IMG/VR virus record: IMGVR_UViG_3300029288_000060
Location: 128,001 to 192,000 of that record
From: a virus
Lineage: Duplodnaviria; Caudoviricetes
Direction: 5' to 3' (one strand)
DNA: 64,000 nt
A model generated the notes under the pieces. It searched no databases. It had not been told where the DNA came from and worked only from the letters and a program-made list of their open reading frames with translations. This document shows, in pieces, positions 2,157-47,777 of this stretch (positions are counted from its first letter, which is position 1; each line of letters starts with the position of its first letter). The translations under genes were made by a program, and so were the position numbers.

Positions 2157-5100
2157 TTAATTCCCCTTTTCTAACTCCATGTCTACACCTGTAACCAACA
2201 AAGAGTTTCTTAACAAATTAACTGTTTCTGGAATAGTTGAAATATCTGTATCATCTTTTAAATAATTTGAATCAATAATATTTTTTATGTATTGATTTTT
2301 TAAATCAATACAATCAGATTTGGTTGTTAAGAATTCAGTTAAATTATCCAACGCTCCATGTCCTATTAGAGCGCTTTGTTCCATTTCTCCTAAACGCTGA
2401 CCACCATGATTTTTTCTTCCACCAGGTGGCTGTAATGTCTTTCTATTATACAATGAAATAGACCTAAAAGTCATTTTATTTGCAGCAATATGTATCATTC
2501 TAAAGAAATACATAAAACCAACACATATAGGATTTAATATAAAATCATCTGAAGCATAATCAAAGAGTTTATATTCATGTTTAGTATTAGTATATTTCAT
2601 TGCTTTTAAAACCATATCATAATCAGAAGATTCAAATGGTGGCGCAAGTAAGGTAATGTTATTTAAAAAATCTTCATTTATTTTTTCATTTTTTAATTGC
2701 GCTTTAAATTGTTTATAATACCAATTATTTTTCGTATTATCAATTAATTTAATATAGTACAATAAATTCTTTTTAATTTTAGAAATTCTATCAGATTCAG
2801 ATTCATCGGGATTTAATGGGTCATTAAGCATACATATTAATTGAGTTTTTAAATCATTTAAAGACATCGCAAGGTTTGCTTCAAAAACTTGACCTACATT
2901 CATTCTTGAGATAATTCCCAAAGGATTAATACAAATGTCTACATGTCTACCATCTTCCATTTTTGGCATTTCTTCATGGGGTAAAATTTTTGATATTACA
3001 CCTTTATTTCCATGACGGTTGCCAATTTTATCACCGACCTCAATATTTTTTAAATACATAGCTGACATTTCAACATGTATCCCATTAATTTCTTCACCTT
3101 TGATTTTATACTTTCCTGAATGAGAAAACTTATCTAAATTATTATCTCTAATAAATTGTAAAGCTCTAGATTTTGGTAGTCTTGTATAAATTATATTTTG
3201 AAGATTTTTTTCTTCATCTATTTGACGTTGTTGAGTTTTTTCAACCCATTCTGAATACTGTTTAATTTCTTCATTATATTTGTTTACATATATATCTACA
3301 TTCATGACAAATAACGTATTTTTTGTTAATAATGGAATTTCTTCTTTAAAAATTGAATTATATTCTAATGGATTTCCAGACATTTCTTTTAAAATTGCAT
3401 AAGGTTGTCCACTATTAATTATGTCATATTTCTTTTTAAATCTTTTTTCATCTTGTATAGTGTAAGGTCTTGGTAAGGGTTTATATCTATTTTTTTCTAG
3501 TGATAATAAGATTTTTGATTCTGGAATATTAAATGATAAATCTTTTACATGAACAGATGTAAAAATATTTTCTTTAATTAGTCTATCTGAAATAATGATT
3601 CCATCTTCATAGTTATAACCATCCTTTGGCATAATTGCAGTAAGTAAATTCTTACCAAAATTTATTTCACTATTTTTACAATAATTACTCTCAGCAATTA
3701 TATCACCAGCTTTAACTTTATCGCCTTCATGAACATACACTTCCATTAAATCAACATTTTCTACATATATCTTTCTTGCACCTACATTAATTAAATCAAA
3801 ATCTCCATCATCATATACAATCATAACAAAATCATAATCAACATAGATAACTTCACCATCTTTTTTAGCTCTTTTAATAAATTGAGTATAATCTGTATAT
3901 AATCCTTCACAACCAGTTTTAATCATAGGTTGATCAAAATTAAATAACATTATTGCCTGTCTCATTTGAGAAGATGCCATTTGTAATCTTGTCTGGTCGT
4001 CATTCTCTAAAAATGGCACCATTGTAACAGGAATTGAAATTGGTTGTTCTTTTATTGTCTTTTCAGTAAACTTTAAATTATTATCTAAATTAACATTAGG
4101 TAAAAGACTTTGTAATATACCACAATTTTCTCTATCTGGAGTATCAACAGGACAAATTCTTCCAAACATTGATGGTTGAATATCTCTTAGATAATAAGGA
4201 ACATTTTCTCTATTAAATCCTCCTGGTCCAACTAAACTAGTTCTAGATAACATAGTAAGTTCTTCAATTGGATTAATTGCAAAATCAAACTGAATAATAT
4301 TAGACACATTACAATCAGATAAAATTTGAGAAGAATTAATTCCAAATTTTGGATTTTTTGTTGTTCTATTTGCCATACATAAATCAAAAACTGCTTTTGA
4401 AACTCTGGATAATATTATATATTCAAAACACCTTATTCTTTTATTTATAAAATCTGTATCATCAATATTATTAATTTTTATTACATTGATTAGGTCCCCT
4501 AAAACTGTTCCGGTTGTAAAGAATCTTGCTGATATTAAATCAGTTTTAAGGATTAAATCTAACCCATAAATTAAATCCTCGCCTTTAATCTTATAATCAT
4601 ACTTAGAATAATATTTTCCTGCTTCTTTAATCAGGTCTTCTTTAGTATATTTATAAACTTCGTAACCAAGATAAAACTTCTTTAAATCAAATAAAAGTTT
4701 ATCATAAATATCGTAAGTAATTAATTGAATACTTTCATCATCATTAATTTTATCTTGGTCAAACTCAAACATTTTTTCAATTTCTTCACGGGTATAATAT
4801 GAAAATATTACTAAAGATAAGGGCAATTTTTTTCCAAAAATAGAAATGTGTACATAAGGAAATTCTTTCTCTTCTAAAATCATTAAAGATGTAACATTAG
4901 TTCTCATCTTTATTGTTTTTCCTCTAGTAACAAAAGGAATATCAAATAATTGAAATAAAGGTATTTTCCTTTTACCTCCAATAACTAAATAATTATCATC
5001 CACTAATTTTGGAATAAACATAGATAAATCAATTTCTGATTCGCCTTTTTTTAGTTTAATTACTAAATTTTTCTTTAACGTTCTATATAATTCACCGGAC

Positions 5101-5267
5101 GAAAACTTGGATTCTCTAATTCCAAAATCTGTAATTATAAATCCAAGTTCCTCGGCCGGTCTAAGAATTTCTCTAATTATTGATTCTAGATTTTCATAAT
5201 CTTGTTTTCTCAATGTAAATATATTTCTTTCTTGATTAACTTCATAACCAGGATTTATAAATTTCAA
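2157..5267 (-). CDS. rpoB: Multisubunit RNA polymerase beta-like subunit (set 1)
   Basis: GRICPVDTPD, PFLENDD..R.QM.S.QMRQA, GYNYEDG, GDKIGNRHGNKGVIS, NPLGIISRMNVGQ, GGQRLGEME. Confidence 0.93.
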   Translation of the reverse strand: MKFINPGYEVNQERNIFTLRKQDYENLESIIREILRPAEELGFIITDFGIRESKFSSGELYRTLKKNLVIKLKKGESEIDLSMFIPKLVDDNYLVIGGKRKIPLFQLFDIPFVTRGKTIKMRTNVTSLMILEEKEFPYVHISIFGKKLPLSLVIFSYYTREEIEKMFEFDQDKINDDESIQLITYDIYDKLLFDLKKFYLGYEVYKYTKEDLIKEAGKYYSKYDYKIKGEDLIYGLDLILKTDLISARFFTTGTVLGDLINVIKINNIDDTDFINKRIRCFEYIILSRVSKAVFDLCMANRTTKNPKFGINSSQILSDCNVSNIIQFDFAINPIEELTMLSRTSLVGPGGFNRENVPYYLRDIQPSMFGRICPVDTPDRENCGILQSLLPNVNLDNNLKFTEKTIKEQPISIPVTMVPFLENDDQTRLQMASSQMRQAIMLFNFDQPMIKTGCEGLYTDYTQFIKRAKKDGEVIYVDYDFVMIVYDDGDFDLINVGARKIYVENVDLMEVYVHEGDKVKAGDIIAESNYCKNSEINFGKNLLTAIMPKDGYNYEDGIIISDRLIKENIFTSVHVKDLSFNIPESKILLSLEKNRYKPLPRPYTIQDEKRFKKKYDIINSGQPYAILKEMSGNPLEYNSIFKEEIPLLTKNTLFVMNVDIYVNKYNEEIKQYSEWVEKTQQRQIDEEKNLQNIIYTRLPKSRALQFIRDNNLDKFSHSGKYKIKGEEINGIHVEMSAMYLKNIEVGDKIGNRHGNKGVISKILPHEEMPKMEDGRHVDICINPLGIISRMNVGQVFEANLAMSLNDLKTQLICMLNDPLNPDESESDRISKIKKNLLYYIKLIDNTKNNWYYKQFKAQLKNEKINEDFLNNITLLAPPFESSDYDMVLKAMKYTNTKHEYKLFDYASDDFILNPICVGFMYFFRMIHIAANKMTFRSISLYNRKTLQPPGGRKNHGGQRLGEMEQSALIGHGALDNLTEFLTTKSDCIDLKNQYIKNIIDSNYLKDDTDISTIPETVNLLRNSLLVTGVDMELEKGN

Positions 5268-5333: not shown

Positions 5334-8096
5334 TTATAAAGATTCTCCACAAATAATTTTATCAAAAATACCTTTATATTTTCCAGACTTTTGAATACCT
5401 TTAATGATTTGTCTTTTAGGGTTAGAAAATCCTAAACCTAAAATCCAGCTCGCTTTTTCAGGAACAGATTGAATGCTGTAATAAACAGGAACTATTTTAT
5501 TCCTATCTTTTACCAATCTCCATAAATTTTCTTGACCATTATCAATTGCCCACATCATCTGAGATACTATACATTCAAAATGAACATGATGTATATTTCT
5601 GCTCCTGTTATATATTTCATATGAATTATCAACTAAGTCTTTATAATTTTTATCTTTTGTTTGATGAAATAGTCTTGATGCTAAAGTTAAATCCCCAACA
5701 ATATCTTTTTGTTTAGATTCTTTATTTTCCTCTTCTTCATCTTTTCCTAATTTTGCAACCCCCGAGTTGTGGAACGTACGAAGTATAAGCTGAGTATTTG
5801 TTTCTCCCAATGACTGCGCCGCGATAATTCCAATAAAATTACTATGAATATTTTTCCATAAATCTCCGTAACATTTATGACATATTTCTTGACTATTGCA
5901 AAAAATTGGACTTCTTATTTTAATAGTTTTGTTTATTAACTCTATTCTGTTTTTTTCTGTAATTTTTTCAAGCTGGTTTTTTTCATTTAGAAAATATCTA
6001 TCTAATAACATTTTTGATTTTTTATCATCGTTTACATAAACATCAAGAAAATCTTGTGTACCACAATCATCAATATCTTTACTTAGTTCTAAATTTGAGC
6101 CTGTAAATAATAATTTTCTCGATAAGTACCCGGAAGTACCAGTATTTAAGGCAACATCTAAAAGACCTTTTCTACAACCATATGTTGAATTGAAAAATTC
6201 TTCTTGTGTTAATCCCTCCAATAAACTATGTTTAATTGGTTTTTCTTTAATCATTCCATTAAAATCTGAAACAAAACCTCTAGAAAATACAATCTGGGAT
6301 GCTTGTTCCCAACTTCCCCTAGCACCTGATTCGATTAAATAAGAATAATTAAAATTATCTTTTAGGAAATTTATTGTTTCTGGGGAAGTAAGTTTTCTAA
6401 TTTTTTCCAAAATTGTTCCGTTTTCTTCATATATTTTATCTCTTAGTTTACCCGAATTTTTTATTTCAAAAGCTTTTAGGGATAATGTAGGACCAAAAAT
6501 AGTTGAATATTTAAATCCAATTTCTTTAATCTTATCTAAAGTATTTGCAACAATATTTTCCGGGTATATTTCTTTAATATTATTCAATATTTTTAAAAGT
6601 TCTTTTTTTCCAACAGGATAATTTATTAACTCATAATCTTCAGGAAAACAATCATTTAAAATTTTAAGAGATTCAGGAACTTTTTTTCCTTTGTAGTCAA
6701 TTATATTTTGCAATTTTGGGAATTGATTCGTACTTAATGTATATATACCTAAAACTATATCCTGACTTGGTAGTGTTGATAATTCATTATTGGCAGCATT
6801 CGTAAAATTTTTTGTAATAATAACTTTTTCCAATAATTCATCTTTTGTTTTTTTAGAAATAGGTACATATACTGCCATTTGATCACCATCAAAATCCGCG
6901 TTAAATCCTGAACATACCAATGGATGTAGTTTAATTACATTATCTTTAGAAATTTTAATCTTAAATGCCACCATACTTAATCTATGTAATGTTGGTTGTC
7001 TATTTAAGATACATAATTCATTTTTAGATAATTCTTCACAAATATTGTATAATGAAAAGTTAGAAAACGTAACACATTGATCTATATAATCTATTGCTTG
7101 ATTTAATAATTTAAATTTACTAAGTTCTATTAATTTTTTAGCAACTGGTAATTTAAATAACTCTAAAAAACCAACATATGGTAAAGAACATTCATCAATA
7201 TTTAAAGCAGGATCTGGTATAATAACAGCTCTGCCAGAAAAATCAATTCTTTTTCCTAGTATATTACCTCTTATTAATCCTTCTTTTTTAGATAATTTTT
7301 CAATAATATGCTCATACAATTCAGTTGCGTCTTTTTGTAATTGTTTAAAATAAGAATAAAAGAGAGTTTTATCCCTAGTAATATCAATAATAGTATCTTT
7401 CATAGATTCTTTTTTGGTAAGGATTTGCATATAGAATCTATTTATTTTATCCACAATTTGATTATTTCTTTCAACTCCTTTTGCTGCAGGCCTTAAATCT
7501 GGTGGTAAAACTAAGATATTTTGAGTAAATAATTTATCAAGATTATCTAATATATTTTTCCATTTACTATTAGGATCATCCTCAACATACGCCATAGCCA
7601 TATTACTAATTAACTCATATATTGCATCCAATTTTTCCCATCTTAAAACACCTGGCGGAACTTTATCTTCTTCAGTTACAAAATAAAAGTCATCTTTTGT
7701 GTATAACACACTTTTTTCATTTTTCATTAACTTATTCAAATACGCTTTTAATTTATTTCCTGCTATATCAATAACTAAATCATACATAATTGGATTAACT
7801 ATTTGAACTGGTAATACTATTTTAGCAAATCTTTTTCTTCTTACATCGCTATTTACAATATCTACACCACAAATTTTACATGTACCACCTGACCTGGAAA
7901 CACCATGATATACATCACATTGACAAGTATAATTCTTTACAGGCCCAAAAATTTGCTCAGAAAATAACCCTTCTGAATGAAATTTTCTTTTGTCAATAAT
8001 CTTAGAAGATGTTATTTCTTTTAAATCTTCACAAAATGCTCCTAAATCAAGAAGTTTTGGCATCTTTTTTATCGACCTCGCTTTCACTTTTTTCAC
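5334..8096 (-). CDS. rpoC: Multisubunit RNA polymerase beta-prime-like subunit (set 1); true start may be MPKLL near 8063
   Basis: GLFSEQIFGP, CxC...CxxC zinc finger, VLPPDLRP, LGKRIDFSGRAVI, NRQPTLH, catalytic NADFDGDQ, TSGYLSRKL, TQLILRTFH. Confidence 0.95.
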   Translation of the reverse strand: MKKVKARSIKKMPKLLDLGAFCEDLKEITSSKIIDKRKFHSEGLFSEQIFGPVKNYTCQCDVYHGVSRSGGTCKICGVDIVNSDVRRKRFAKIVLPVQIVNPIMYDLVIDIAGNKLKAYLNKLMKNEKSVLYTKDDFYFVTEEDKVPPGVLRWEKLDAIYELISNMAMAYVEDDPNSKWKNILDNLDKLFTQNILVLPPDLRPAAKGVERNNQIVDKINRFYMQILTKKESMKDTIIDITRDKTLFYSYFKQLQKDATELYEHIIEKLSKKEGLIRGNILGKRIDFSGRAVIIPDPALNIDECSLPYVGFLELFKLPVAKKLIELSKFKLLNQAIDYIDQCVTFSNFSLYNICEELSKNELCILNRQPTLHRLSMVAFKIKISKDNVIKLHPLVCSGFNADFDGDQMAVYVPISKKTKDELLEKVIITKNFTNAANNELSTLPSQDIVLGIYTLSTNQFPKLQNIIDYKGKKVPESLKILNDCFPEDYELINYPVGKKELLKILNNIKEIYPENIVANTLDKIKEIGFKYSTIFGPTLSLKAFEIKNSGKLRDKIYEENGTILEKIRKLTSPETINFLKDNFNYSYLIESGARGSWEQASQIVFSRGFVSDFNGMIKEKPIKHSLLEGLTQEEFFNSTYGCRKGLLDVALNTGTSGYLSRKLLFTGSNLELSKDIDDCGTQDFLDVYVNDDKKSKMLLDRYFLNEKNQLEKITEKNRIELINKTIKIRSPIFCNSQEICHKCYGDLWKNIHSNFIGIIAAQSLGETNTQLILRTFHNSGVAKLGKDEEEENKESKQKDIVGDLTLASRLFHQTKDKNYKDLVDNSYEIYNRSRNIHHVHFECIVSQMMWAIDNGQENLWRLVKDRNKIVPVYYSIQSVPEKASWILGLGFSNPKRQIIKGIQKSGKYKGIFDKIICGESL

Positions 8097-8406: not shown

Positions 8407-8536
8407 TGAATATTTCTTTTATGAATTCTAAAATACTATTACACCCTTTTTTAACTACTGGTTCTAAATCCTCTAAGGTTTCATTTCCTATTTTTTTTAA
8501 ATCTTCTTTATATTTTTGTTTTTTTGATTCATTCAT
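8339..8536 (-). CDS. Hypothetical protein
   Basis: 65-aa ORF with GGAGG RBS, overlapping its neighbours. Confidence 0.5.
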   Translation of the reverse strand: MNESKKQKYKEDLKKIGNETLEDLEPVVKKGCNSILEFIKEIFNDFITSLFESRKKKRGTNEKAK

Positions 8537-8879
8537 TTTTTCTATCCTCCACTATTTTAAAATCTTGCCAAGGTTGATAAAATGCACTATCAAAATTAAA
8601 AATCTTAAACATATTTTCGATAATTTGTATTGTTTCATCATTTACAACGTTATCTTTAATAAAATCTGGAAAACAAAATTCTTTTGTTTTTGGATCACAG
8701 TTTGGATGATTGCCTTTATTAATTATTATTTTTTCAATCTTTTTCATTTCATTCGTATATATAGTAAATTCATTTATAATATAATTAGAATTTAAAATGG
8801 TAATATTATAAAGAATTGAGTTACAAATTAACTTATTTGGAACTATTGTTTTTTCTATAACATTCTGTTCAATAATCAT
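8529..8879 (-). CDS. Small E2/UBC-like protein
   Basis: HPNCDPKTKEFCF resembles the UBC HPN-x7/8-C signature; ATGA overlap with the upstream ThiF gene. Confidence 0.55.
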   Translation of the reverse strand: MIIEQNVIEKTIVPNKLICNSILYNITILNSNYIINEFTIYTNEMKKIEKIIINKGNHPNCDPKTKEFCFPDFIKDNVVNDETIQIIENMFKIFNFDSAFYQPWQDFKIVEDRKNE

Positions 8880-9745
8880 GCAGAACCTGTTTCTGGTAAT
8901 AATTCAACGTAATATTTATTATTATGGATACCAACACTAATAATGTAATAATTGAATTGATACGGAAGGTTTTTGGTAAGGGAGGAAAAACTGAAGATAA
9001 TATCTTGAATTGTACTAAAGGTATTTTTTGGAACTATTTTTGTATTATAAGGTGAATGTTTGTCTCCTAAAGAAACTAATAATTCATTATCTTTATTTAT
9101 ATCAATAAGTGAAGAATAATTATTATTTAAATTAATTAATTTTCCATCAAAATCATTATTGTCATCATAAACTATATCCACATCATTTTTGTCAACTAAA
9201 GCTTTTATTCTTTCTGAAATACAATCAATTGGTATTTCAAAAACTTTACGCTTTTTTACCATTAAATTAATCAAACCTTTTTCAAATAATGTCGTAACAT
9301 TCAAAGCAGCATTTTTTAAGTCAATTCTTGTTAATCTTGATGCGTATTTTCCTTCATGTTGCTTTAAATAATTAACATTTTTTCTGCAATCCATAATAAG
9401 ATTTCTAAAAGATATATATAATCTCATATCTATTAAATCTTTTCTATTATAAGTAAAATCTCTACAATCAATAATTAAATCAAACTTTGGGATTTTTGTT
9501 TCGCCTTCTATAAATTTTTTATTTAAAATATTGACTCGACATTTATTATTTAACTTATCGCAAATAGCTTTTGTTTTTAACTTTCCAATATCTTTTTCAT
9601 CATAAATAGAATTCTTAGTATTTTCTAATTCTACAGTATCATAATCTATTAAAAGTAAATTTTTTGTTGAGTCTAATTCTGAAAGATTTTTAGCTAAAAA
9701 TCCTCCAATAGTACCTAAACCAATTATGCAAATATCACTATACAA
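8876..9745 (-). CDS. ThiF/E1-like adenylating enzyme (second copy) with C-terminal extension
   Basis: IIGLGTIGG nucleotide-binding loop, LIDYDTVE, KLKT, IIDCRD. Confidence 0.8.
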   Translation of the reverse strand: MYSDICIIGLGTIGGFLAKNLSELDSTKNLLLIDYDTVELENTKNSIYDEKDIGKLKTKAICDKLNNKCRVNILNKKFIEGETKIPKFDLIIDCRDFTYNRKDLIDMRLYISFRNLIMDCRKNVNYLKQHEGKYASRLTRIDLKNAALNVTTLFEKGLINLMVKKRKVFEIPIDCISERIKALVDKNDVDIVYDDNNDFDGKLINLNNNYSSLIDINKDNELLVSLGDKHSPYNTKIVPKNTFSTIQDIIFSFSSLTKNLPYQFNYYIISVGIHNNKYYVELLPETGSA

Positions 9746-9795
9746 ATATTGCCTCCTATTTATTTGTTCTATTAATTAAAGAAATTTTCTTAATT

Positions 9796-16743: not shown

Positions 16744-17781
16744 TTATTCACCTTTTTCATTTCTTACATTTGAATGAATTAAGTTATCTGATGTTTCTTT
16801 ATCATTGGAAATCATTTCGCCCATCATGTAGCATGTATGGTTACATAATTTACAATATTTCTTTTTATCCGCAACTAAAGACTTTTTCAAATTTTTATTT
16901 ATTTCAGCGTTATGATCTAAAACATTAAGAATAGTAAAATTAAGAGCTAAATATTCAGCTCTGAGTCTTAAACATAAGCGCAAACAACCATCTGCATCAA
17001 CACACATTGTATGAAAATCTTTATCTAACTTACAATCATATTCACTTGGAAGGTAATCATACGTCATAGATAATAATGTATCTCTCATATGAACATTTAA
17101 TTTTTCATCAATAATTTTATCTAAAATATCTTTTAGTTCATTACTTTTATTTACTAATAATTTTTCATCTTCAATATTAGAGAAATCATAATATTCAGAT
17201 TTTGAAATATCAATGAACGTAATATCACTGTTAATACCTCTATTAGTTAATTCTTTAACTAATGGATATAAAAACTGATAATTATCATTTGTAACAGTTA
17301 TTTCAGCAACAACGTCATGTATTTTTTCCTTTAATTGTGTAAGTTTTTGTAAACCTTGCAAACTTTTCCTTGCTACGTCAGAATTTGCTCCTTCTATAAA
17401 AATAATTGGATCTACAGATGCAGTATATCCTTGTAAATAATCTACTTTTGATAATAATTCTTCAGTTTTCTTTTCATCAATATTATTACTAATTACTGTG
17501 TAAGCAATATTTTCATTGTTACAATAGTTAACAATCTCATAAAGATCTTCTCTTAGAGTTGGTTCCCCACCATAAAAAATCATAAAACAATCTGGATTAT
17601 GTTCTTTTAGTTTTTCTAAACCATAAATAACGGATTCTGTTGACATTTCATGTTCATGATAGTATCGCATATTAGGATATATGCCTGGTTTTGTTTTATA
17701 ATCTCTTACAAGTCTACAATAATCACACCTTAAATTACATCTTCTTGTGAGAATCCAGTTAACTATTTGAATTTTATTCAT
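16744..17781 (-). CDS. Radical SAM protein with Cys-rich (SPASM/twitch-like) C-terminus
   Basis: CNLRCDYC, YGGEPTL; C-terminal C...VDADG...C...CKLC...C. Confidence 0.88.
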   Translation of the reverse strand: MNKIQIVNWILTRRCNLRCDYCRLVRDYKTKPGIYPNMRYYHEHEMSTESVIYGLEKLKEHNPDCFMIFYGGEPTLREDLYEIVNYCNNENIAYTVISNNIDEKKTEELLSKVDYLQGYTASVDPIIFIEGANSDVARKSLQGLQKLTQLKEKIHDVVAEITVTNDNYQFLYPLVKELTNRGINSDITFIDISKSEYYDFSNIEDEKLLVNKSNELKDILDKIIDEKLNVHMRDTLLSMTYDYLPSEYDCKLDKDFHTMCVDADGCLRLCLRLRAEYLALNFTILNVLDHNAEINKNLKKSLVADKKKYCKLCNHTCYMMGEMISNDKETSDNLIHSNVRNEKGE

Positions 17782-36453: not shown

Positions 36454-37697
36454 TGTTGATTAACCCTACGATTTATTGAAATCATAGACTCATAAAAATT
36501 TGTTTTATATTCTGGAAATTTTGCTACCAATGAAACATGTATACCAGTAACATATTTAAATTCCTCAGATTTTACATCAAACGTATGTAATCTAGATAAA
36601 AAAGTTACGCCAATATCAGATGGAATATCTGTTAAAAATAATGAAATATTTTTTAATTCAACATCTCCATATTTTGGTTTTGAAGTTGTTAAAAAGGTTA
36701 CAAAAGATTCAACTAATTGACCCATTTTAATATTATCAGAATTTTTAGCAAAATTAAGAATATCATTTCTTACTTTATCATAATTATAAAAAACATCTTT
36801 TGGACTGATATCTTTTCTATCTCTAATAAAACTAATAAACATTCTGGTCATTGATTGATTTAATAGACCAGAAAATAAAGTATTTAAAATATCCAAATTT
36901 TTAAGAATACCGTCATCTTTATCATAACCCCAAAGAATATTTGAAACTCTTTCATAGCTGGCTGGATTTGCGTATATCATACCTATTTTTTGAGCGTTAA
37001 AATCATAAAGGTAGTCTGGATGTATTTGTATAAATTCAATTACTAATGGATGAAAATTAGATTTAATACCATGATCTAAAAATGCTTTTACATTTACTTC
37101 TGAATATAAATGTAGAACTCTTCTTAACCCAGCTGCGTCTTCAATCATATTTAAAGAATATTCTTGATCTTCTGGATTATCTAAACAAAGTACAAACCAC
37201 CCTTTCGGAAGTTCTTTTGTATGTATTCTACATTCATTTTGAACCGCCCATAATAATTGTTGTAATGATGAATCGCCTCTTGATAATTCATCTATAATAA
37301 ATAAACCATAAGAATCATTATCTAAAGGTACAAAGTCAGAATATAACATTTTAAATTTTGAATTACCATTATCAATAACAGGAAAAGGACATAAAAAATC
37401 ATCTCTTGATAAAACTGGAGCTTTAATTAAAATATGTTTAAAATCAATACCTGTCTCTTCACTTAATTCTTTACATATTTGCAATGAAATTTGAGTCTTG
37501 CCTATTCCAGCAGGTGATACTATACGAAAAGTCTGCTTTTCTATATCTAACCCATTTCTCCAGCATTGAATTGTATTTTTAATGTTTGTTTTAACTATCT
37601 CTTTGATATTATCAATTGAAACTGGAATAATTCCTAATTTTTGATAATATTTTTTCTCTTCTCTTTTATCACCATTCGCCATAAATTCACCCTTCAC
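36450..37697 (-). CDS. MoxR-like AAA+ ATPase
   Basis: PAGIGKT Walker A, FIIDELSR Walker B; coupled to the vWA-peptidase gene. Confidence 0.82.
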   Translation of the reverse strand: MKGEFMANGDKREEKKYYQKLGIIPVSIDNIKEIVKTNIKNTIQCWRNGLDIEKQTFRIVSPAGIGKTQISLQICKELSEETGIDFKHILIKAPVLSRDDFLCPFPVIDNGNSKFKMLYSDFVPLDNDSYGLFIIDELSRGDSSLQQLLWAVQNECRIHTKELPKGWFVLCLDNPEDQEYSLNMIEDAAGLRRVLHLYSEVNVKAFLDHGIKSNFHPLVIEFIQIHPDYLYDFNAQKIGMIYANPASYERVSNILWGYDKDDGILKNLDILNTLFSGLLNQSMTRMFISFIRDRKDISPKDVFYNYDKVRNDILNFAKNSDNIKMGQLVESFVTFLTTSKPKYGDVELKNISLFLTDIPSDIGVTFLSRLHTFDVKSEEFKYVTGIHVSLVAKFPEYKTNFYESMISINRRVNQQ

Positions 37698-39471: not shown

Positions 39472-39687
39472 TTATTCTTTTTCTTTTTCCTGCGGTGTTA
39501 TATCTAATAACGTTGCAAGTGCTAAAATCTTTTCCGGTGGTAAATCCTTTCTCAATTTTTCTTCTATTTTTCTTCTTATTTTTTTAGTTTTTTCATCATG
39601 AACATTTTCAATGATATTATTCACCTCCTTTTTTAACAAAAATAATTTCAACGGATTAAAAGAAATACTAATAAATCTTTTAATCAA
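39472..39687 (-). CDS. Hypothetical protein
   Basis: 71-aa ORF, TTG start with AGGTGAG RBS. Confidence 0.55.
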   Translation of the reverse strand: MIKRFISISFNPLKLFLLKKEVNNIIENVHDEKTKKIRRKIEEKLRKDLPPEKILALATLLDITPQEKEKE

Positions 39688-39699: not shown

Positions 39700-39724
39700 T
39701 TATTTCAATAATTAATATATGTAG
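39700..39724 (-). promoter_or_regulatory. Candidate phage promoter motif, copy 1
   Basis: CTACATATATTAATTATTGAAATAA, 22/25 identical to the intergenic copy at 50599-50623. Confidence 0.5.
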
Positions 39725-39746: not shown

Positions 39747-40013
39747 TTATTTATTTCCTGTGGGTTCTACTATTACAGGTCTATTATAATCTAGCAAATC
39801 AAAAATTAAGTTTGCAGTTGGAAAACTGTTAGATGTATTTCTAATAATATCTTTTGTATGTATTGGCATATACTGATCTGTGTAGTAAACTTGAAAACCG
39901 CCTTTAAATGTAAACACAACACCATCATGACTTTGTTCTGCGGTAATCAAATTAGATCTGTCTGTTTTGATTAACTCCATTGTTCCTTTTTTAATAACAA
40001 TAGTATCTTTCAT
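39747..40013 (-). CDS. Hypothetical protein
   Basis: 88-aa ORF. Confidence 0.6.
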   Translation of the reverse strand: MKDTIVIKKGTMELIKTDRSNLITAEQSHDGVVFTFKGGFQVYYTDQYMPIHTKDIIRNTSNSFPTANLIFDLLDYNRPVIVEPTGNK

Positions 40014-40014
40014 T

Positions 40015-40611
40015 TTACAATTCTCCTTCTAAAGATTTTAATACAATCAACATTTTATCTTTTTCTAACTTACTTTTTAAAAAAGTAATTAACCCTTCTT
40101 TAGTATTTGTTCTAAGAAAAATAGAAATTAACTCATTATTTTCATTTTTAATTAAATTGTTAATCATTATATTAATTTTATCAAAGTTTAATAATAGAAA
40201 CTTATCTACATCCTTTTTTAATAGATCAAAATCTAAACCTGTTATAATCTTTGCAATAATACCTATATATTCATATTCTAAAAATTCAATAAACTTTAAA
40301 AAATTATTGATATCTTCAATGTTATCAAAAGTTAAACTGGGTGTAAACTCAAAATTATATATTTCAGTTACTTTATCATTTAACTTTTGACATAATTCTC
40401 TCTGTCTTTCAAAATCAAGAGAATTTATTTCATTGATTAAATTTAAAAATATAAACTTAAATTCTTCCGTCCCTAAATGATTAATAATATCTATAAAATC
40501 AGCATCAATTTCTGCTTCCGGAATCATATAATCTAAATTAGATTCTTCTTCGTCATCAACTTCATCTAACGGAATTGATGTCCCTATTAAAATCTTTTCA
40601 TAATCAGACAT
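40015..40611 (-). CDS. Acidic hypothetical protein abutting the set-2 beta gene
   Basis: 198-aa ORF starting immediately after the beta stop. Confidence 0.65.
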   Translation of the reverse strand: MSDYEKILIGTSIPLDEVDDEEESNLDYMIPEAEIDADFIDIINHLGTEEFKFIFLNLINEINSLDFERQRELCQKLNDKVTEIYNFEFTPSLTFDNIEDINNFLKFIEFLEYEYIGIIAKIITGLDFDLLKKDVDKFLLLNFDKINIMINNLIKNENNELISIFLRTNTKEGLITFLKSKLEKDKMLIVLKSLEGEL

Positions 40612-43600
40612 TTATGTTCTCTCCAATATCAATGAAATAAAATATGAATTTAATAAATCCTTTGCAGGTGATATTTTTGCATCTCTATAATTTGCAGATC
40701 CTGTTTGAACAATATCCGAAATAATTTCATTTTTAGTTGTTAGATCATCACTTAAAGGCCCCATTAGTTCTGATAATAAAGTTGGACAATTGTATGAAAT
40801 TAAAGAATATGTGTCTGCTTCACCTAACCTCTGTCCACCTTCTCTTCTTTTTCCTGATGTAGGTTGTAATGTTTTTCCAGTAACTGGGCCTGTACTTCTT
40901 CCATGCAATTTCATATCCGCCATATGCTCTAATTTACTAAAATACATATATCCTACTGGTACTTCACTTTTTGTTTTTGTTCTATATTGTGGTAAAAATA
41001 ACTCATACCCAGGTTTTAAACCCAAAAAAGACAAAGCTCTTTTAATTTGGTCTTGTTTTGGAGCTTGAAATGGTGGAATTATAATTGGAACAAAAGCTGT
41101 ATTTTTTATCTGGTTTATTAAATTTAAAAACTCTTTATCGCTTAAAACAGATAAATTTGCTATCAATCTGCTTGTAAATTGTTTATTAGGGGAACTATCT
41201 AAAATTGAATAAACAGATTTCATTAAAGTTAAAATTTTATCTTTTCTATTTAGTTGACTAATTCTTATTGCTAAATCTTTTGCAATTAACCCACAATACA
41301 ATTCATATAATTGTCCTATATTACTTCTTCCAATAATACCAATAGGATTAACAATTATATCCATTGTTTCAGACCACGGGGCTGGAGTTCTTGGCATATT
41401 TTCATCTTTTTCTACTAAACATATAATTCCTTTTGCTCCAAATCTGTTACAAAGTTTATCACCAAGATTAATTTTTAATTCTTGCTCAATTTTAAATCTT
41501 ATTAAGATACCATGTATTGTATTACCTTTAACTGAAAATTTTTCTGTTAGAGTGGTTTGATACTTTTTCCTTGTCCTATTAATTAATTCTTGTAGTATTG
41601 GAAATTTATTCTCATCAAGATTTGAAAAAACATCAATGTCAACAATTTTCCCTCCAGGACTTTTCTTAATAAATTGTTGACCTATAACTTCTTCTCCCTC
41701 TTCTTCAGAAAATCCGAGCAATTGTTCAATTTCACCCATCGTTTTCTTTAGAATTGGTTTACCTTTTTCAACATATTCACCAATTTTTGCGATCTCTAAA
41801 ACTCTATCCTTTTCAAAGATTAAAACTTCATCAATTATACCATGAATAGATGTTAATTTATCTTGGTTAATTAATCTTTCATTAATAACAATACCATCTT
41901 CAAAGTTATACCCATCGTAGGGCATTACCGCAGTTAATAAAGTTCTTCCTAAAGAAATGGTTCCATTTGAAATACAACTACCTTCAGCAATAATTTGATT
42001 TGTATGAACATTTTGATTTACTTTAACAATTGGGTTAAAAATGCTAAGAGTATTTTTACCGGTTCCTGACTTTAAGTGTATGGGGCTAATAGGAATTTCT
42101 AAAGTTTTTTTATCTTTACATAAAATAGTAATTGAATCGTTTGTAATATTTATAATTTTGCCATCACAAGGAGCTTTTTTAATAAAATTTTCTGATAAAC
42201 CATTTGTAAACAAAGACTCGTAACCAGATCTTACTACAGGTGGTTCTGGATTTTTTAATGGAATCATCTGTTTAGCTTGGTTTGTAGCCATTATAATTCT
42301 AGCGCCATCATTATTTTCAATAAATGGAATCATACTTGAGGCAACTGATAATATACCAGACTTTTCATTATCAGAAAAAGCTTTTTTAGAAAACAAACCT
42401 CTGGCAGATGTTATAGAAGCACCAATAGATAATTGTTGAGAGATACCAATCATTTCACCTTCTGGAGTATCTAATGGGTCAATATTTCCATAATAGGAGG
42501 GATGAATATTTCTCGCTTCATTTTGTATAGATCTTTTATCGGGAATACCACCAATATTTTTTCCGATGGGTGAAATTCTAGTCATGACTGCCATTTCTTC
42601 GATTGGATTGGCGAATTCCATATTTGCAACTATTTCGGATCTATTAAATTCACTAAGTAGTTTAGTTTGGTTTATTTCAAACTTTGCATTTTTATTACCT
42701 GATATAATTTGTTGTTTATAAATTGTATAGGCAGCTAAAATTTGTTTTTGAACTAGATGAACTAAAACTTCAGATCCTCTAATTCTTTGGTTTAGAATAT
42801 CATTACGATCTTCAACATAACCAATAATTATTTTATATGACATATAATACATAATATCTTTTAACGTTGAAGGTAATTGTTGATTAATTAAAACTTGTTT
42901 TGCAACAGGATCAACAATATTTTCTAAATTTGATAAAATTAAAAATGTTGTGTTAACTTTACCTGTTAACTTAAAAATAACTTCATTAAAATATTCTACA
43001 CTAGCAAATTCTTTTTTAATATCTAATGTATCAATTTTAGCAACAGAAAAGGATGTTATTAATTCTTTCTTTAATTCACTATCTACATTATCAAAATAAA
43101 TATAATTTATATTATCAATTTTAACTACATATTGTTGAGTCTTTTTAGGTTTATCTTGACTAATTTTATATGTTATTCCATACTGAGCTAAAATATGTTC
43201 AAACCCAAAACTAAAAAATAATAGAATTGATAATGGTAACCATGTATTTGCGATAAATATTTCTAAATATTGTAAATTTCTAGTTCTTTTACTTCTTATT
43301 CTAAAAACAGAATACGAGCTTTCAAACCTAGATTCAAACTTTTTAGGAAAAGTTATTGGACATAAAACAATTTGGTTAACTAAACATTTTCTTTGACCAT
43401 TAACTCTAAACGTTCCCGTCTTTTCATCAATTCTTGGAATCTCGATTTGTATATAATGTACTTTTCCATCTTTATCTGTTACAGTTGTTTTTATTAAATT
43501 AATATCTGATTTTTCAATTTCTCCAGCTTTTTGCCTTTTTCCAACTATTTCAATAGGACCTATTTTTAATGGTAATTCTTTAGTCTCTAGTACTTTAAAA

Positions 43601-44732
43601 GAATTTTCTAAATCTTTTTTCAAATTTACTTCAAAATCTATTAATCTTTTTTGAAATAAATGTTGCGGAGACTTATCAGAAACTACTTTTGGAACATTAT
43701 AGGATTTTACAATTGCATCATTTGAAGTATTTATAGGTTTTTGCTGAGTTAATATCTGATCAGAATATTGACTATCAATAATTTTTAGTGAATTACCAAC
43801 TTTTTTTTTGATATGGAATTTGTAATTTTTTTAGCTTTGTTTACATCTCCACTAACTTTACTTAAAATAGAGGCAACCCCAACTTTTTCAAGCCCACTTG
43901 CAGATACTTGTTTTGAGGCTATTTTTTCTTTGGCGACAGGATCTTTTTGTAAATATGATTGAACAGCATCTCTTACTTGTTCTTTATTTTCTGGTTTGAT
44001 TTTAGCATGTATTGTATTCATCACTTGGTCAACAATCTGATCTGTTTCGTCATCCTCTACTTCATCACTTGTATCTAACGAAGTTTCAATTTTACCTGAT
44101 TTAATTGTTTTTAAGATTGTTACAATTCTTTCAAACTTAAAATTTTTATTCTTAACTAATAATCTATATCTAACACCAGACGAAGTGATTAAACATAATA
44201 TTAGATGATCAAATTCAAAAGTTCCTTCTTTAAGTTGTTGAACAATAGGAAAGAATTTTCTATCAACAAATTTATTTAAGTTGTCTTTCGTTAAATCTAT
44301 AGTATACATCAAAACTTTTTCAAAATTATTAAAATCTGAATAAGATTGATTTACAATATTTTTTATAAACAAACTTAATCTTTGACGATAATTGGAAGGA
44401 TTAAAAGTTGAGTCAATAGCATTTAAATAAACAGTTAAATCATAAAATACATTTTTAGATGTAGGAACTTTCATAATTGAAGAATATGAATATATTCCAT
44501 ATTTTTTAAATGCTTTGATTAAATTTTGAGTTATTCTAGTTCTAGGAATTCTAGTCACTGGAATTATATTAATTTTTATATCTACAAGTTTTAAATTTAA
44601 TTTTGGATAGTCTTCTAAAAAACTAGAATTTTCAGAAAAATATGTAACTATGAAATTCTCACCTGGTTTATTAGGAAACCTTATTCCATCAACAACATGT
44701 GTATATTGTCTTAGAGACTTAAATTGAATCAT
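40612..44732 (-). CDS. rpoB: RNA polymerase beta-like subunit (set 2), encoded as two ORFs (43785-44732 and 40612-43623) joined by a -1 shift at an A9G run
   Basis: DTPEG, PFIENNDGAR, GYNFEDG, GDKLCNRFGAKG, GGQRLGE; the beta frame stays open 59 codons upstream of its annotated TTG, back to the A9 run. Confidence 0.85.
43800..43809 (-). other. Slippery A9G run (TCA AAA AAA AAG)
   Basis: Nine T at 43801-43809 on +; contains A_AAA_AAG in phase; lies in the short overlap of the two reading frames. Confidence 0.65.
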
Positions 44733-44747
44733 TTTTTAGACTCCTTT

Positions 44748-47700
44748 TTAATCTTCTATTTCTTTTTTCTCAACTAAAGTACCAGTTAACAATCTTTCTA
44801 AGACTGAAGGTGGTAATTCAGTTGTAGTAATCAATCCAGTATTTAGAGCATTATTTACATTCTCAAAAGCTAATCCTTGTAATAATCCGCTATTAAATAT
44901 ATTTTTCTTTATATTCATTAAAACTGGTTTTAATGGATCTTTTCCAACTCTTGCTGGAATAACAGGATTATTACTATCTCTTAAAACTTGACTAATTAAT
45001 ACTTCCATATGCACTAAATCAATACTAGAAATATCACTATATATTTTATAAAATTTTAAAAATAAATGGTTAATATCTTTAAATCTTTCTTTACCAGACA
45101 TTAATCGTTCAACATATAAAACTATTTCTTTTAAATCCTGCTTTTGTAAAGGAACTTCTAACATTTCATAATCTTTATTAAACAATAAATTAATAACATC
45201 TTTAGTCTTATTTATAATTTTAGAATATTTAATAATAACAGGGTAATCTAATATTAAATCAAATGATAAATCTGGAAAGTTTACCTTTGAAATTAAACCA
45301 TTTAAATAGATAGTGTTTTCTTCTTCATTAATAATAAAATTATCACCAATTTCATAACTTTCTAAATCTATTATCATAGAACATAAATCTGTACAATATA
45401 AATTATTTTCGATTTGGTTTAATTTTGTTTTAAGTTGGTTAATATTTAATAAAGGATCATTTTCAAAAATATCTTTTAGAATATCTCTTGTAATAACTTT
45501 AATTGCGGTTGAATGAAATGTACGCATTATCAACTGAGTATTTCGTTCTGCAATATTCTGCGCAGCAATGATTCCAATGTATGGACTTTTATGTACTTGT
45601 AAAAGTTTACCATAACAAGTATGACAAATTTTTAATGATTTACAAAAAATTGGACTTCTTAAATGAATTAAATCACCTGATTTAAAATTAGATGCTTTAA
45701 ATTCTTCTAACTTACCCCTTCTTATTATAAATCTTCCATTAAGTCTGCTGATAATATCTTCATTAAGTTTTATATCCAATGTTAAATCAGTTCCACAATC
45801 TTTTAATGTCCAATCCAATTCAACAGAATTTAGCAAATATGCTAATTTTCTTGCAGTATATCCAGTATCTGCAGTATTAATAACTCTATCAATTATTCCT
45901 GCCCTACTACCACCTGCAGCATTAAAGTATTCTGTCGGAGTTAAACCATCAGATAAAGAACCTTTAATTGGTGGCAAAATTTTACCAGTTGGATCTGCCA
46001 TAATACCCTTTGCAACTAAAATTTGTATTGGTTGATCCCACCCTTTTGTAGAACCCGACTCAACTAAACTATATAACCCAGTATCTTTTAAATGGTTAAT
46101 CATTATTGCTCTCATTTTACTAATTATTTCAACTGCTTCTTCAGTTGTCGCTTTATCTAAATTCTTTTTAAGTTCATATATTTCTGGTGGTATTGTAATT
46201 TCATCTAAATTTAATGATGGTGCTAATAATGTCGAAAATTTAAAACCAATATTTTTTAAACTATTTGCCACTTCTCTGCCTTTTTCATCACCATATTTAT
46301 TAACAACTTCAAAGATTAATTTATTTACAACTTTTTTAGTTACTAAATCGTTTATAAATCTAAAATCTTTTGGAAAGCAATTATTTAAAATTGCTTTTCC
46401 CATTGTTGTATTTTCATTTTTATAAATTACTGGAATATAAGGGTTTGTTGCATTATCTAAATCATCTTGTGATACTTTTATTGGTGATTTAAATTCCTTT
46501 TTGCTGTCTTTTGTTAATAAATATAAACCAACGCACATTTCCTTACTTAATTCAAAAGTGATACTTGTAAACGAATTAGATGACCTTGCTAACATCATTC
46601 TTTTTTTTGCTTCTTCTTGAGATTCAATTGTTAATGGATGAAAAATCGCCATTTGGTCACCATCAAAATCTGCATTAAAACCGCCAACAACAAGTGATGA
46701 AATTTGAACAGAATTACCTTCAACTATAACCGGGTAAAAAGCTCTAACAGATTCCGCATGTAAAACAGGATCTCTTTTTGCTAAAACTACTCTATCTCTT
46801 GATGCTAAAACTGTGGCTTCAAAAAAGATATTATATAATTTATCTGGAACAGTATCATTATTCTTTAAACTTCTTAAAATAATTGAAATACTATTTGTTG
46901 ACAAATCCAAATTTGTAAAATCTTTAATTAAATTCTCAAGTTCTATTTTATTTATCTTGCCAGAATATAATAGAATATGTATAATAAAAGGTTCAAATAA
47001 ACTTAAAGCTAATCTAAATGGAATCCCAATCTGGTCGGCTTTTAATTTGGGATTACCTATAATTACAGCTCTGCCAGAAAAATCTGTTCTTTTACCTAAT
47101 AATTGAGATCTAATTAAACCAAACTTTTTTCCTATTTTTGTTCTTATATAATCATCTAAATCATTAACTGATTTTTGTAATGACCAATTCATTAAATCGA
47201 ACATTGTACCTTCTGTTCCAAATGATTTAATAGAAATGGCTTTTCTTAGTATAGTCAAATATAAATCATTAATTTTATCTTGACTATATCTTCCAGTTTC
47301 ATCTTTATAAATTGGTCTTTGTTCTGGAGGTATTATCGGTACATATTTTATAAATAATGTTTCATTTTGATATGATTCTTGTAGAACTTTTATAAATTTA
47401 TCTCTATCTTCTGATTCACCTCTTATAGATAATTTTGGGTATAATTTTATAAATTCACTTATACCAGTTACTCCACTATCTTCTGATAACAATAATTCAT
47501 TACTATCCAATCTAAAAAAATTTTCTGTAGAAAACATTTTTTCTAACTTTCTGTCTAATCTTAAAAAAATTTTAAATGCAGTTGGATGAATAACTTGCGT
47601 ATTTAAATTTATATAAGAAAAAGTTTTCTTTCTTGCAAGAGAATTTTGGACTCCAAATATTCTCTCAGAAAAGATTCCATCCGGATGAAACTCTTCTGTA

Positions 47701-47777
47701 CGAGTATGGATTAAAGTACTTGTAACTGGTTTTAAACTTTTTACAAAATCATCCAGATTTAAAAATTTTAATGGCAT
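44748..47777 (-). CDS. rpoC: RNA polymerase beta-prime-like subunit (set 2)
   Basis: GIFSERIFG, LLGKRTDFSGRAVI, KRDPVLH, catalytic NADFDGDQ, TADTGYTARKL, TQLIMRTFH; no N-terminal Cys4 finger. Confidence 0.94.
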   Translation of the reverse strand: MPLKFLNLDDFVKSLKPVTSTLIHTRTEEFHPDGIFSERIFGVQNSLARKKTFSYINLNTQVIHPTAFKIFLRLDRKLEKMFSTENFFRLDSNELLLSEDSGVTGISEFIKLYPKLSIRGESEDRDKFIKVLQESYQNETLFIKYVPIIPPEQRPIYKDETGRYSQDKINDLYLTILRKAISIKSFGTEGTMFDLMNWSLQKSVNDLDDYIRTKIGKKFGLIRSQLLGKRTDFSGRAVIIGNPKLKADQIGIPFRLALSLFEPFIIHILLYSGKINKIELENLIKDFTNLDLSTNSISIILRSLKNNDTVPDKLYNIFFEATVLASRDRVVLAKRDPVLHAESVRAFYPVIVEGNSVQISSLVVGGFNADFDGDQMAIFHPLTIESQEEAKKRMMLARSSNSFTSITFELSKEMCVGLYLLTKDSKKEFKSPIKVSQDDLDNATNPYIPVIYKNENTTMGKAILNNCFPKDFRFINDLVTKKVVNKLIFEVVNKYGDEKGREVANSLKNIGFKFSTLLAPSLNLDEITIPPEIYELKKNLDKATTEEAVEIISKMRAIMINHLKDTGLYSLVESGSTKGWDQPIQILVAKGIMADPTGKILPPIKGSLSDGLTPTEYFNAAGGSRAGIIDRVINTADTGYTARKLAYLLNSVELDWTLKDCGTDLTLDIKLNEDIISRLNGRFIIRRGKLEEFKASNFKSGDLIHLRSPIFCKSLKICHTCYGKLLQVHKSPYIGIIAAQNIAERNTQLIMRTFHSTAIKVITRDILKDIFENDPLLNINQLKTKLNQIENNLYCTDLCSMIIDLESYEIGDNFIINEEENTIYLNGLISKVNFPDLSFDLILDYPVIIKYSKIINKTKDVINLLFNKDYEMLEVPLQKQDLKEIVLYVERLMSGKERFKDINHLFLKFYKIYSDISSIDLVHMEVLISQVLRDSNNPVIPARVGKDPLKPVLMNIKKNIFNSGLLQGLAFENVNNALNTGLITTTELPPSVLERLLTGTLVEKKEIED

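Follow-up and report, generated by a model that had tools for sequence, protein, structure and literature searches.

The 64,000-nucleotide stretch of DNA analyzed here (the window) corresponds to bases 128,001 to 192,000 of one linear 268,812-bp viral contig from IMG/VR (record IMGVR_UViG_3300029288_000060; Duplodnaviria, Caudoviricetes). It encodes two divergent multisubunit RNA polymerases (RNAPs), each with one gene for the β′ subunit and one for the β subunit. Our analyses suggest that one pair (set 2) is orthologous to the RNAP packaged in the virions of phages such as phiKZ and AR9, and that the other (set 1), together with a 483-amino-acid (aa) protein resembling AR9 gp226, is orthologous to the non-virion RNAP of the same phages. 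The phage, and generally the clade of multimeric-RNAP-encoding Caudovirales (mReC) to which it is assigned below, would run the two-polymerase programme of phiKZ and AR9 with unsplit subunits, a reading to which we give a probability of roughly 0.6. Such a programme in a lineage with intact subunits had been proposed in a first-pass annotation of the window, and the orthology of both sets supports it.

Two β′/β gene pairs in a phage contig

The contig has a GC content of about 26%, lacks terminal repeats, and is about 74% complete as estimated by CheckV; 93.5% of it is coding under code 11. Within the window, where gene content consists mostly of replication and nucleotide-metabolism proteins, every large open reading frame (ORF) lies on the minus strand. 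Pfam searches identified Rpb1 and Rpb2 domains in four of these ORFs, bearing out both the two β′/β pairs of the first-pass annotation and their order, β′ then β. Set 1 comprises β′1 (5334 to 8063; 909 aa; Rpb1 domains 2, 3, and 5) and β1 (2157 to 5267; 1036 aa; Rpb2 domains 3, 6, and 7), and set 2 comprises β′2 (44748 to 47777; 1009 aa; Rpb1 domains 1, 2, 3, and 5) and β2 (40612 to 44732; about 1,380 codons in two frames, with Rpb2 domains 3, 6, and 7 in the C-part ORF at 40612 to 43623), all on the minus strand. No further Rpb1 or Rpb2 match was found elsewhere on the 268,812-bp contig. Two gene boundaries required correction. The β′1 start had been placed at 8096, i.e., that of the longest ORF (5334 to 8096), but alignment with β′2 makes the ATG at 8063 (MPKLLDLG) the most likely start, giving the 909-aa product. 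Nor is β2 a 1003-aa protein as had been listed, the 315-aa ORF at 43785 to 44732 being its N-terminal part.

The two sets are indeed divergent, with 32% identity between β′1 and β′2 and 28% between β1 and β2. Both β′ proteins contain the NADFDGDQ sequence previously noted, the active-site aspartate motif being invariant as DFDGD across the set 2 family and as D-x-DGD across the set 1 family. The β proteins keep GYN(F/Y)ED, the GxKG lysine, and GGQRxGE (in β1, GYNYED, RHGNKGVISK, and GGQRLGEME), and the second zinc cluster of β′ is kept in set 2. The reported difference in the N-terminal zinc finger was also confirmed: set 1 retains its CxC...CxxC signature (C47, C49, C62, and C65, invariant in 15 family members) while set 2 lacks exactly that segment. 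The residues at rifampicin-pocket positions D516 and H526 (Escherichia coli numbering) are replaced in both sets, which, going by known resistance positions, predicts that both enzymes are insensitive to rifampicin.

No α or omega subunit had been recognized in the window, and this extends to the whole contig and to sigma factors: α (RNA_pol_L, PF01193), omega (Rpb6, PF01192), and sigma (Sigma70_r2, PF04542) gave no match at an E value of ≤10 on a contig that is itself about 74% complete.

Relationship of the two sets to virion and non-virion RNAPs

To relate the two sets to characterized phage enzymes, all reading frames of the AR9 and phiKZ genomes were scored with set 1 and set 2 family profiles, used in place of Pfam family searches, which with a loose filter missed most of the phiKZ/AR9 RNAP pieces. 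The virion and non-virion roles of the AR9 and phiKZ genes are those annotated in their own records. For β′, the N part of the AR9 virion subunit (g145) scored better with the set 2 profile (E = 5.8e-51, versus 4.2e-20 with set 1), as did PHIKZ180, a β′ annotated as a structural head protein (8.9e-34 versus 6.7e-13). The reverse was true of the N part of the AR9 non-virion β′ (g270; 4.1e-45 with set 1 versus 7.9e-31 with set 2) and of the phiKZ non-virion β′ PHIKZ055 (8.7e-15 versus 3.4e-6). For β, the virion proteins PHIKZ178 (a head protein; 2.5e-31) and AR9 g189 (1.9e-24) were matched by the set 2 profile only and the N part of the AR9 non-virion β (g105; 2.1e-23) by the set 1 profile only, while the C part of the latter (g089) was matched by both, better by set 1 (2.1e-45) than by set 2 (2.6e-35).

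Structural features of the proteins follow the same division. In a multiple alignment, the zinc-finger deletion has identical boundaries (...FSERIFG / S-x-x-R-x-x-F-x-Y-I-x-L...) in the β′2 family, the virion β′ proteins of AR9 and phiKZ, and the β′ of Fusobacterium phage JD-Fnp1; the finger is kept in set 1, bacteria, the phiKZ non-virion enzyme, and phages RHph_Y65 and YerA41. A long N-terminal extension before the conserved β core is found in PHIKZ178, AR9 g189, and β2.

Phylogenies of β′ were inferred from a 64-row and a better-aligned 25-row alignment (LG+C20 PMSF, quick search), with the rpoC genes of Salmonella and Staphylococcus from contaminated "phage" records as named cellular anchors and Vidania among the cellular representatives. 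In both trees, which contained no sequences from nucleocytoplasmic large DNA viruses, the phage β′ proteins fell outside the cellular ones with Shimodaira-Hasegawa-like approximate likelihood ratio test (SH-aLRT) support of 99 to 100; neither set nests in bacterial RpoC, and the nesting within ordinary bacterial RpoB/RpoC that the first-pass annotation had named as refuting its proposal is not what these β′ trees recover. Sets 1 and 2 formed separate, well-supported clades. In the 25-row tree, set 2 was the sister of the virion RNAP clade of phiKZ, AR9, and JD-Fnp1 (SH-aLRT 93). Forcing set 1 and the non-virion RNAPs together cost 1.2 log-likelihood units (approximately unbiased test, P = 0.37; 25-row alignment), so that this grouping is compatible with the tree and not rejected.

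Taken together, the profile scores for both subunits, the shared zinc-finger deletion, and the SH-aLRT of 93 support the earlier guess that set 2 is a virion-type enzyme. We regard the orthology of set 2 with the virion RNAP and of set 1 with the non-virion RNAP as quite probable.

Two cultured phages encountered in this comparison deserve mention. JD-Fnp1 (ON464759.1; 180 kb) encodes an unsplit 930-aa β′ without the zinc finger, annotated as "subunit alpha" (L013:6001-8793), which grouped with the AR9 virion β′ in the 64-row tree (SH-aLRT 99); an unsplit virion RNAP could perhaps be studied more readily in this phage. Rhizobium phage RHph_Y65 (MN988525.1, L012; 207 kb) has a lone 1128-aa β′, and a Pfam Rpb2 search of its genome found no β.

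A gp226-like protein upstream of set 2

The 483-aa protein is encoded at 49116 to 50567 (minus strand) and is kept upstream of set 2 in seven relatives, with 48 to 77% identity. It had no sequence-level match in Pfam or PHROG, and a family profile run against the AR9 and phiKZ frames gave a best E value of 0.16. An AlphaFold (AF2) model built from eight sequences (mean predicted local distance difference test [pLDDT], 68) was therefore compared by Foldseek with the Protein Data Bank (PDB), where it retrieved 7um0_A (E = 3e-4), 7s01_A, and 8que_B (both 2e-3) at a probability of 1.0, the next match being at 0.3. The first two correspond to gp226, a chain of 459 to 463 residues in the AR9 non-virion holoenzyme, and the third to phiKZ gp68. 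VIA-align gave Z scores of 17.0 and 16.9 to AR9 chain A over 382 to 394 residues, nearly the whole chain, 6.6 to phiKZ gp68, and 4 to 5 to sigma region 2 on residues 108 to 242. From this modeled structural homology, the 483-aa protein is read as a promoter-recognition subunit of the gp226/gp68 type belonging to the non-virion RNAP; by analogy with AR9 and phiKZ, its presumed partner is set 1.

Promoter-like motifs

Two recurrent motifs were found upstream of genes on the contig. Motif 1, TAGAACAAAT(A), occurs 79 times as the exact octamer AGAACAAA and is present in this form in 25 of 134 gene-upstream regions, an approximately 9-fold enrichment. Intergenic copies point along the gene, typically 15 to 70 nucleotides (nt) before the start codon. 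One copy, ATAGAACAAATAAATAGG (9755 to 9773, at 9770; minus strand), heads the operon that runs from a ThiF-like gene to β′1 and β1; the octamer lies within 3 kb upstream of β′1 in 24 of 76 related loci, in several of them about 1.2 to 1.8 kb upstream as in the window. Another, TTAGAACAAATTATAAAT (48335 to 48352, at 48349; minus strand), heads the operon of a 160-aa ORF, β′2, and β2 and is a candidate late promoter. In all seven relatives examined, with protein identities as low as about 50%, TAGAACAAAWTATAAA was found at the same place before the set 2 operon. The terminase operon and putative structural blocks are likewise headed by motif 1, and its TAGAACATAT variant precedes the Gp23-type major capsid gene, a distribution that fits a late class. 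The AACA core known from AR9 late promoters recurs within motif 1, which may be coincidence. Between the transcription unit of the gp226-like gene and the set 2 operon sits a terminator-like hairpin (48372 to 48424, minus strand) with a perfect 21-bp stem, an 11-nt loop, and a U-run (−24 kcal/mol; z −8.0).

Motif 2 (TTTCAAAWATTAATATATRTAG) is AT-rich, about 22 nt long, and highly conserved, with 21 to 23 copies against 0 to 4 exact-core matches in shuffled sequences. The copies, nearly all intergenic, lie on the plus strand of the contig (0 to 2 on the minus strand). Read on the minus strand, the motif becomes CTAYATATATTAATWTTTGAAA, i.e., ATATATTA with a conserved G 6 nt further on, and as such resembles the mapped early promoter of the AR9 virion RNAP, AAATATATATTAT-N6-G(+1) (Lavysh et al. 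2017, PMC5312081). In this reading, it is situated 26 to 50 nt upstream of minus-strand genes in 16 to 18 cases. One position weight matrix (PWM) match, CTACATATATTTATTTATGAAATA (50600 to 50623, minus strand), lies 45 nt upstream of the gene for the 483-aa protein and is a candidate early promoter of the virion RNAP; AR9 g226 likewise has an early promoter, and CTAYATATAT-like elements are found upstream of the gp226-like gene in the relatives L009, L010, and L011. A second PWM match (39701 to 39724, minus strand) lies 26 nt upstream of the ORF at 39472 to 39687. Several genes have motif 2 and then, 50 to 65 nt later, motif 1, an arrangement like the tandem early and late promoters of continuously expressed AR9 genes.

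Proposed two-polymerase programme

On these grounds, we propose the following programme. Set 2, as the virion RNAP orthologue, would be made late from the TAGAACAAAWTATAAA-type promoter and packed in the head, to be injected along with the DNA. In the cell, it would start early transcription without α, omega, or sigma, probably from motif CTAYATATATTAATWTTTGAAA, in which case the 5′ ends of the earliest transcripts should lie a few nucleotides downstream of CTAYATATATTAATWTTTG and be independent of protein synthesis. Set 1 and the gp226-like protein, as the non-virion RNAP orthologue, would be synthesized once infection has begun and use TAGAACAAAT-type promoters to transcribe middle and late genes, among them those of the set 2 and terminase operons and the capsid gene. 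This assignment of motifs to enzymes is tentative.

A number of observations weigh against this reading. The packaging of set 2 is deduced from its orthology alone, and we lean toward it by a modest margin over even odds. The C-terminal halves of β′ and β separate virion from non-virion enzymes poorly, and in the trees very long branches lead to the non-virion RNAPs, which fall in a polytomy. For the 483-aa protein, the model has middling confidence (pLDDT 68), and the gene adjoins set 2, not set 1. The A-rich break in β2 described below is followed by no stimulatory RNA structure (fold z −0.4). Four to five motif 2 copies lie inside opposite-sense (plus-strand) gene arrays, and this, together with the one-strand bias, leaves the promoter role of motif 2 insecure; the bias may reflect early transcription in one direction, nick sites specific to one strand, or a signal for replication or packaging. 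Finally, no motif 2 precedes set 1, weaker copies included (25258, with a score of 14, is the best extra match in the window), and since motif 1 heads both operons this arrangement offers no explanation for how the presumed non-virion enzyme would be expressed early.

The same promoter arrangement would also fit a scheme in which both enzymes are made after infection and neither is packaged, with the host RNAP reading the earliest genes before the two phage enzymes take on successive middle and late classes in a T7- or N4-like relay of multisubunit polymerases. This alternative, which we consider unlikely, also accords with the surroundings of set 2. The first-pass annotation had placed this set near baseplate genes; one gp5/VgrG-like gene (51403 to 52299) does lie nearby, but no further baseplate-type gene does, and most neighbors are replication and nucleotide-metabolism genes. 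However, a non-packaged relay does not account for the specific kinship of set 2, in both subunits, to phiKZ and AR9 proteins annotated as head or virion components, or for the zinc-finger deletion it has in common with them. Moreover, neither a phage sigma factor nor a recognizable modifier of host RNAP was found on the contig, and sigma-70-like sites were no more numerous than in shuffled sequences, although at 26% GC such a scan is uninformative. The phiKZ/AR9-type programme with a virion enzyme remains the preferred explanation.

A frameshift in β2 shared by two strains

β2 is broken by a single frameshift at a run of nine A residues (A9; 43801 to 43809), with the N-part ORF on one side (43785 to 44732) and, on the other, the C-part ORF (40612 to 43623), whose frame is open up to 43830. 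In the relatives L008 to L011, the gene after β′2 is one ORF of 1361 to 1370 aa that aligns to both β2 frames, and across relatives β2 is a single ORF of 1354 to 1371 aa. The 1370-aa protein of L009 illustrates the point: its residues 1 to 310 align to the 315-aa ORF and 310 to 1370 to the β2 frame, the join falling at the A9 run. The site (43800 to 43809, minus strand) consists of A9 followed by G and includes the slippery heptamer A_AAA_AAG (43806-43800). The zero frame reads TCA AAA AAA AAG TTG ... TAA, while a −1 slip at the heptamer, or one extra A in the mRNA, yields ...SISKKK|VGNSLKIID, as in the relatives; the L010 sequence across the site reads SKKKPENALKIID.

These observations might be taken to mean that set 2 is decaying, i.e., that the break marks a polymerase being lost and that set 1 alone is functional, since β2 is out of frame here and intact in eight relatives. 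The break recurs, however, in L190, a contig of a metagenome-assembled genome from NCBI (GCA_043955465.1) that is 98.8% identical (192 substitutions over 16.9 kb) and carries the identical A9 run and the same two β2 ORFs; as this contig is independent, the break is not an assembly slip. Selection has remained strong since the two strains, 1.2% diverged, split: relative to L190, the β2 C-part shows 14 synonymous and 4 nonsynonymous changes (ratio of nonsynonymous to synonymous rates [dN/dS], 0.07) and β′2 shows 11 and 1 (dN/dS, 0.02). The break also coincides exactly with A_AAA_AAG, a classic −1 slip site, and conserved sequence is still encoded by the 161 nt that separate the two ORFs. Decay of set 2 is accordingly very improbable, and β2 is, on the pattern of purifying selection, a functional gene.

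Full-length β2 would be produced by a −1 ribosomal slip at A_AAA_AAG or by transcriptional slippage adding an extra A, with only a 315-aa N-terminal product made otherwise. Given that no stimulatory structure follows the site, slippage on the homopolymer appears the likeliest rescue. The position of the interruption is not among the split sites described for phiKZ/AR9-type subunits. A model of the β2 N-terminal extension (pLDDT 76) retrieved only generic α/β matches (SRP54 NG, PPK2, and aminotransferases) with template modeling (TM) scores of 0.2 to 0.3.

Membership in the mReC clade

The lineage had already been described as mReC (Weinheimer and Aylward 2020, Nat Commun 11:4506, PMC7481178), so that intact subunits are not in themselves new. 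The clade is defined by unsplit β and β′ of ≥800 aa with NADxDGD, an RNAP branching outside cellular ones and those of nucleocytoplasmic large DNA viruses, together with listed members, a Gp23-type capsid, and a PF03237 terminase (PMC7481178). Here, the subunits measure 909, 1036, and 1009 aa, with β2 at 1003 aa as called and about 1,380 aa when read through; NADFDGD is present in both β′ proteins, which are split from cellular β′ in the trees described above. The contig also carries a Gp23-type major capsid gene (contig positions 23704 to 24879; PF07068, E = 3.8e-35) and a large terminase gene (contig positions 120284 to 120964; PF03237, E = 6.2e-7). The closest relative, L009, is itself the mReC contig 3300014204_Ga0172381_10000022, with 77 to 80% identity. 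By these genomic features, the phage is a member of the mReC clade.

In Supplementary Dataset 2 of the mReC study, several contigs have two entries, an "a" pair (β of about 1365 aa, β′ of about 1005) and a "b" pair (β of about 1015 aa, β′ of about 900) (PMC7481178); hence, the co-occurrence of both sets was already public. The main text of that study used RNAP only as a phylogenetic marker, contains neither "virion" nor "two copies", and does not interpret the pairs as separate enzymes (PMC7481178). According to the account given by Sokolova et al. in their 2020 review (PMC7598289), the RNAPs of phiKZ-type jumbo phages were left out of the mReC analysis. The prior publication of mReC is one of three points that the first-pass annotation had overlooked, the others being the β2 frameshift and the gp226-like fifth subunit. 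The present work adds the gp226-like subunit, the promoter motifs, the β2 frameshift, and the connection between the mReC pair types and the virion and non-virion RNAPs, none of which was found reported in the literature searched.

Each β′ family is large, with more than 120 clusters above 50% identity, and 463 β′1-like stretches were found in IMG/VR (β′1 family members being about 900 aa long). More than 100 relatives in each family have β and β′ as single ORFs. No cultured relative above 60% identity was found among 50,697 phage records. Several β′ genes of relatives carry insertions: L010 has an in-frame mobile insert of about 1 kb at β′2 residue ~770 (L010:12320-13303), L011 one of about 1.5 kb near the catalytic NADFDGD region (L011:8452-10000), and the β′1 homologues P0125, P0139, P0171, and P0235 contain inteins (PF14890). 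These are the kind of event proposed to have split the phiKZ-type genes.

An artefactual origin, from a chimeric contig (the other refuting outcome named in the first-pass annotation) or mis-binned bacterial rpoBC, might be suspected of a metagenomic contig without terminal repeats whose best cultured-organism matches (about 30% identity) include bacterial rpoC, but it can be excluded: GC is 23 to 30% and GC skew evenly negative throughout the window, an ENA assembly independent of IMG/VR is identical over 18 kb, at least four other IMG/VR contigs carry both sets, about 30 to 40 kb from each other, with more listed in the mReC supplement, and the sets branch outside cellular sequences on a contig that bears phage capsid and terminase genes.

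Genes surrounding the two sets

The set 1 operon has the order ThiF-like gene, 116-aa ORF, 65-aa ORF, 102-aa ORF, β′1, β1. The gene that heads it encodes a 289-aa ThiF/E1-like protein (8876 to 9745, minus strand; PF00899), which with the 116-aa ORF (together spanning 8529 to 9745) forms a conserved upstream neighborhood of β′1: of 80 related loci, 75 have the ThiF/E1-like gene there and 61 have the 116-aa ORF. Directly downstream of β1 is a gene for a 284-aa protein resembling GCHY-1, a FolE2-type GTP cyclohydrolase (971 to 1825, minus strand; PF02649), found downstream of set 1 in 70 of the 80 loci. Nearby lies a radical-SAM gene (16744 to 17781, minus strand), and both may point to 7-deazaguanine-type modification chemistry of DNA or RNA linked to the set 1 operon. 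A 372-aa protein (22774 to 23892, minus strand) matches PHROG 1211, an adenylosuccinate synthetase of the PurZ type (2-aminoadenine pathway; E = 4e-53); judging from this match, the phage might modify adenine. Closer to set 2, an AAA ATPase and a zincin-vWA protein (35188 to 37697, minus strand) are homologous to AR9 g028/g029, with the order kept; PHROGs labels the second gene of the pair as HNH endonuclease family.

Candidate accessory proteins flank set 2 on both sides. A 160-aa ORF (47833 to 48315, minus strand) precedes β′2 with a 55-nt gap and keeps its position in seven relatives (28 to 68% identity), while 198-aa and 88-aa ORFs (39747 to 40611, minus strand) abut the β2 stop and are conserved downstream of β2 in six relatives. 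The L190 strain has an extra 244-aa gene exactly between β2 and the 198-aa ORF (L190:17169-17903), a junction that therefore tolerates insertions. Pfam and PHROG searches of the 160-, 198-, 216-, 244-, 298- (52312 to 53208), and 301-aa neighboring ORFs returned no match. A gene for an archaeo-eukaryotic-type peptidyl-tRNA hydrolase (PTH2; 48713 to 49114, minus strand) sits in the interval that separates the gp226-like gene from the set 2 operon.

Comparison with known RNA polymerases

With the bacterial core enzyme, both RNAPs share the double-psi β-barrel active site, NADFDGD, GYNFED, the GxKG lysine, GGQRxGE, and the second β′ zinc cluster. They differ from the bacterial α2-β-β′-omega arrangement in having no α, omega, or sigma gene, in the order β′ then β, and in an identity of only about 30%. 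The likeness to mReC, as exemplified by L009, is comprehensive: unsplit β and β′, NADxDGD, Gp23-type capsid, PF03237 terminase, AT-richness, and jumbo-sized contigs.

Both a virion and a non-virion RNAP are known from AR9/PBS1 (Lavysh et al. 2017, PMC5312081; structures 7S01 and 7UM0). AR9 and the present phage each have two paralogous β/β′ sets without α, omega, or sigma and a fifth subunit of the gp226 type; in both, the virion-type β′ lacks the zinc finger and the virion-type β has a long N-terminal extension. The AT-rich extended early motif and the AACA-containing late motif of AR9 also have promoter-like candidate counterparts here. In contrast, β′ and β of AR9 are each distributed over two or more genes, further broken by introns, where here there is one gene each; AR9 identity to these subunits is only about 22 to 35%; and AR9 has uracil DNA, to which nothing in this contig points. 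In phiKZ, the virion RNAP (PHIKZ178, 180, 080, and others) and the non-virion RNAP (PHIKZ055, 071-074, 068, and 123) show the kinship pattern in profile scores seen here. The split subunits that are the hallmark of phiKZ/AR9-type enzymes, with 4 to 5 polypeptides per enzyme, are absent, and the capsid here is of the Gp23 type. phiKZ also builds a chimallin nucleus. No homologue of PHIKZ054 (chimallin) or PhuZ was found at an E value of ≤1e-5 (phmmer, contig ORFs versus phiKZ/AR9 frames), on a contig about 74% complete and with chimallins diverging fast.

The many-piece RNAPs of phiKZ-like phages have been viewed as a primitive state (Iyer et al. 2021, PMC7824862), and gene fission by intron mobility has been proposed as the origin of split RNAPs, a proposal quoted in a review (Sokolova et al. 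2020, PMC7598289). Unsplit counterparts in a large sister lineage make it possible to test whether the split state is primitive or derived and whether the virion and non-virion enzymes stem from a duplication or were acquired on two occasions. Tentatively, and with somewhat less than even confidence, we suggest that the virion/non-virion split happened once, before mReC- and phiKZ/AR9-type phages diverged; that mReC keeps both enzymes and the gp226-type subunit unsplit; that the phiKZ/AR9 pieces are derived, most likely through intron- or intein-driven fission of which relatives show intermediate stages; and that in this strain β2 is made only via −1 frameshifting or slippage, giving 315-aa and full-length products.

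The lineage, its unsplit subunits, and both pairs being already published, what is added is a functional, and purely computational, interpretation of the two pair types. No virion multisubunit RNAP had been purified by 2020 (review, PMC7598289), and a two-gene virion enzyme should express more easily than the five-piece version. Since the lineage is abundant in metagenomes, with hundreds of clusters and the β′1-like stretches counted above, the two-polymerase strategy may be widespread; a host-independent strategy of this kind may be far commoner than cultured phiKZ-like phages suggest.

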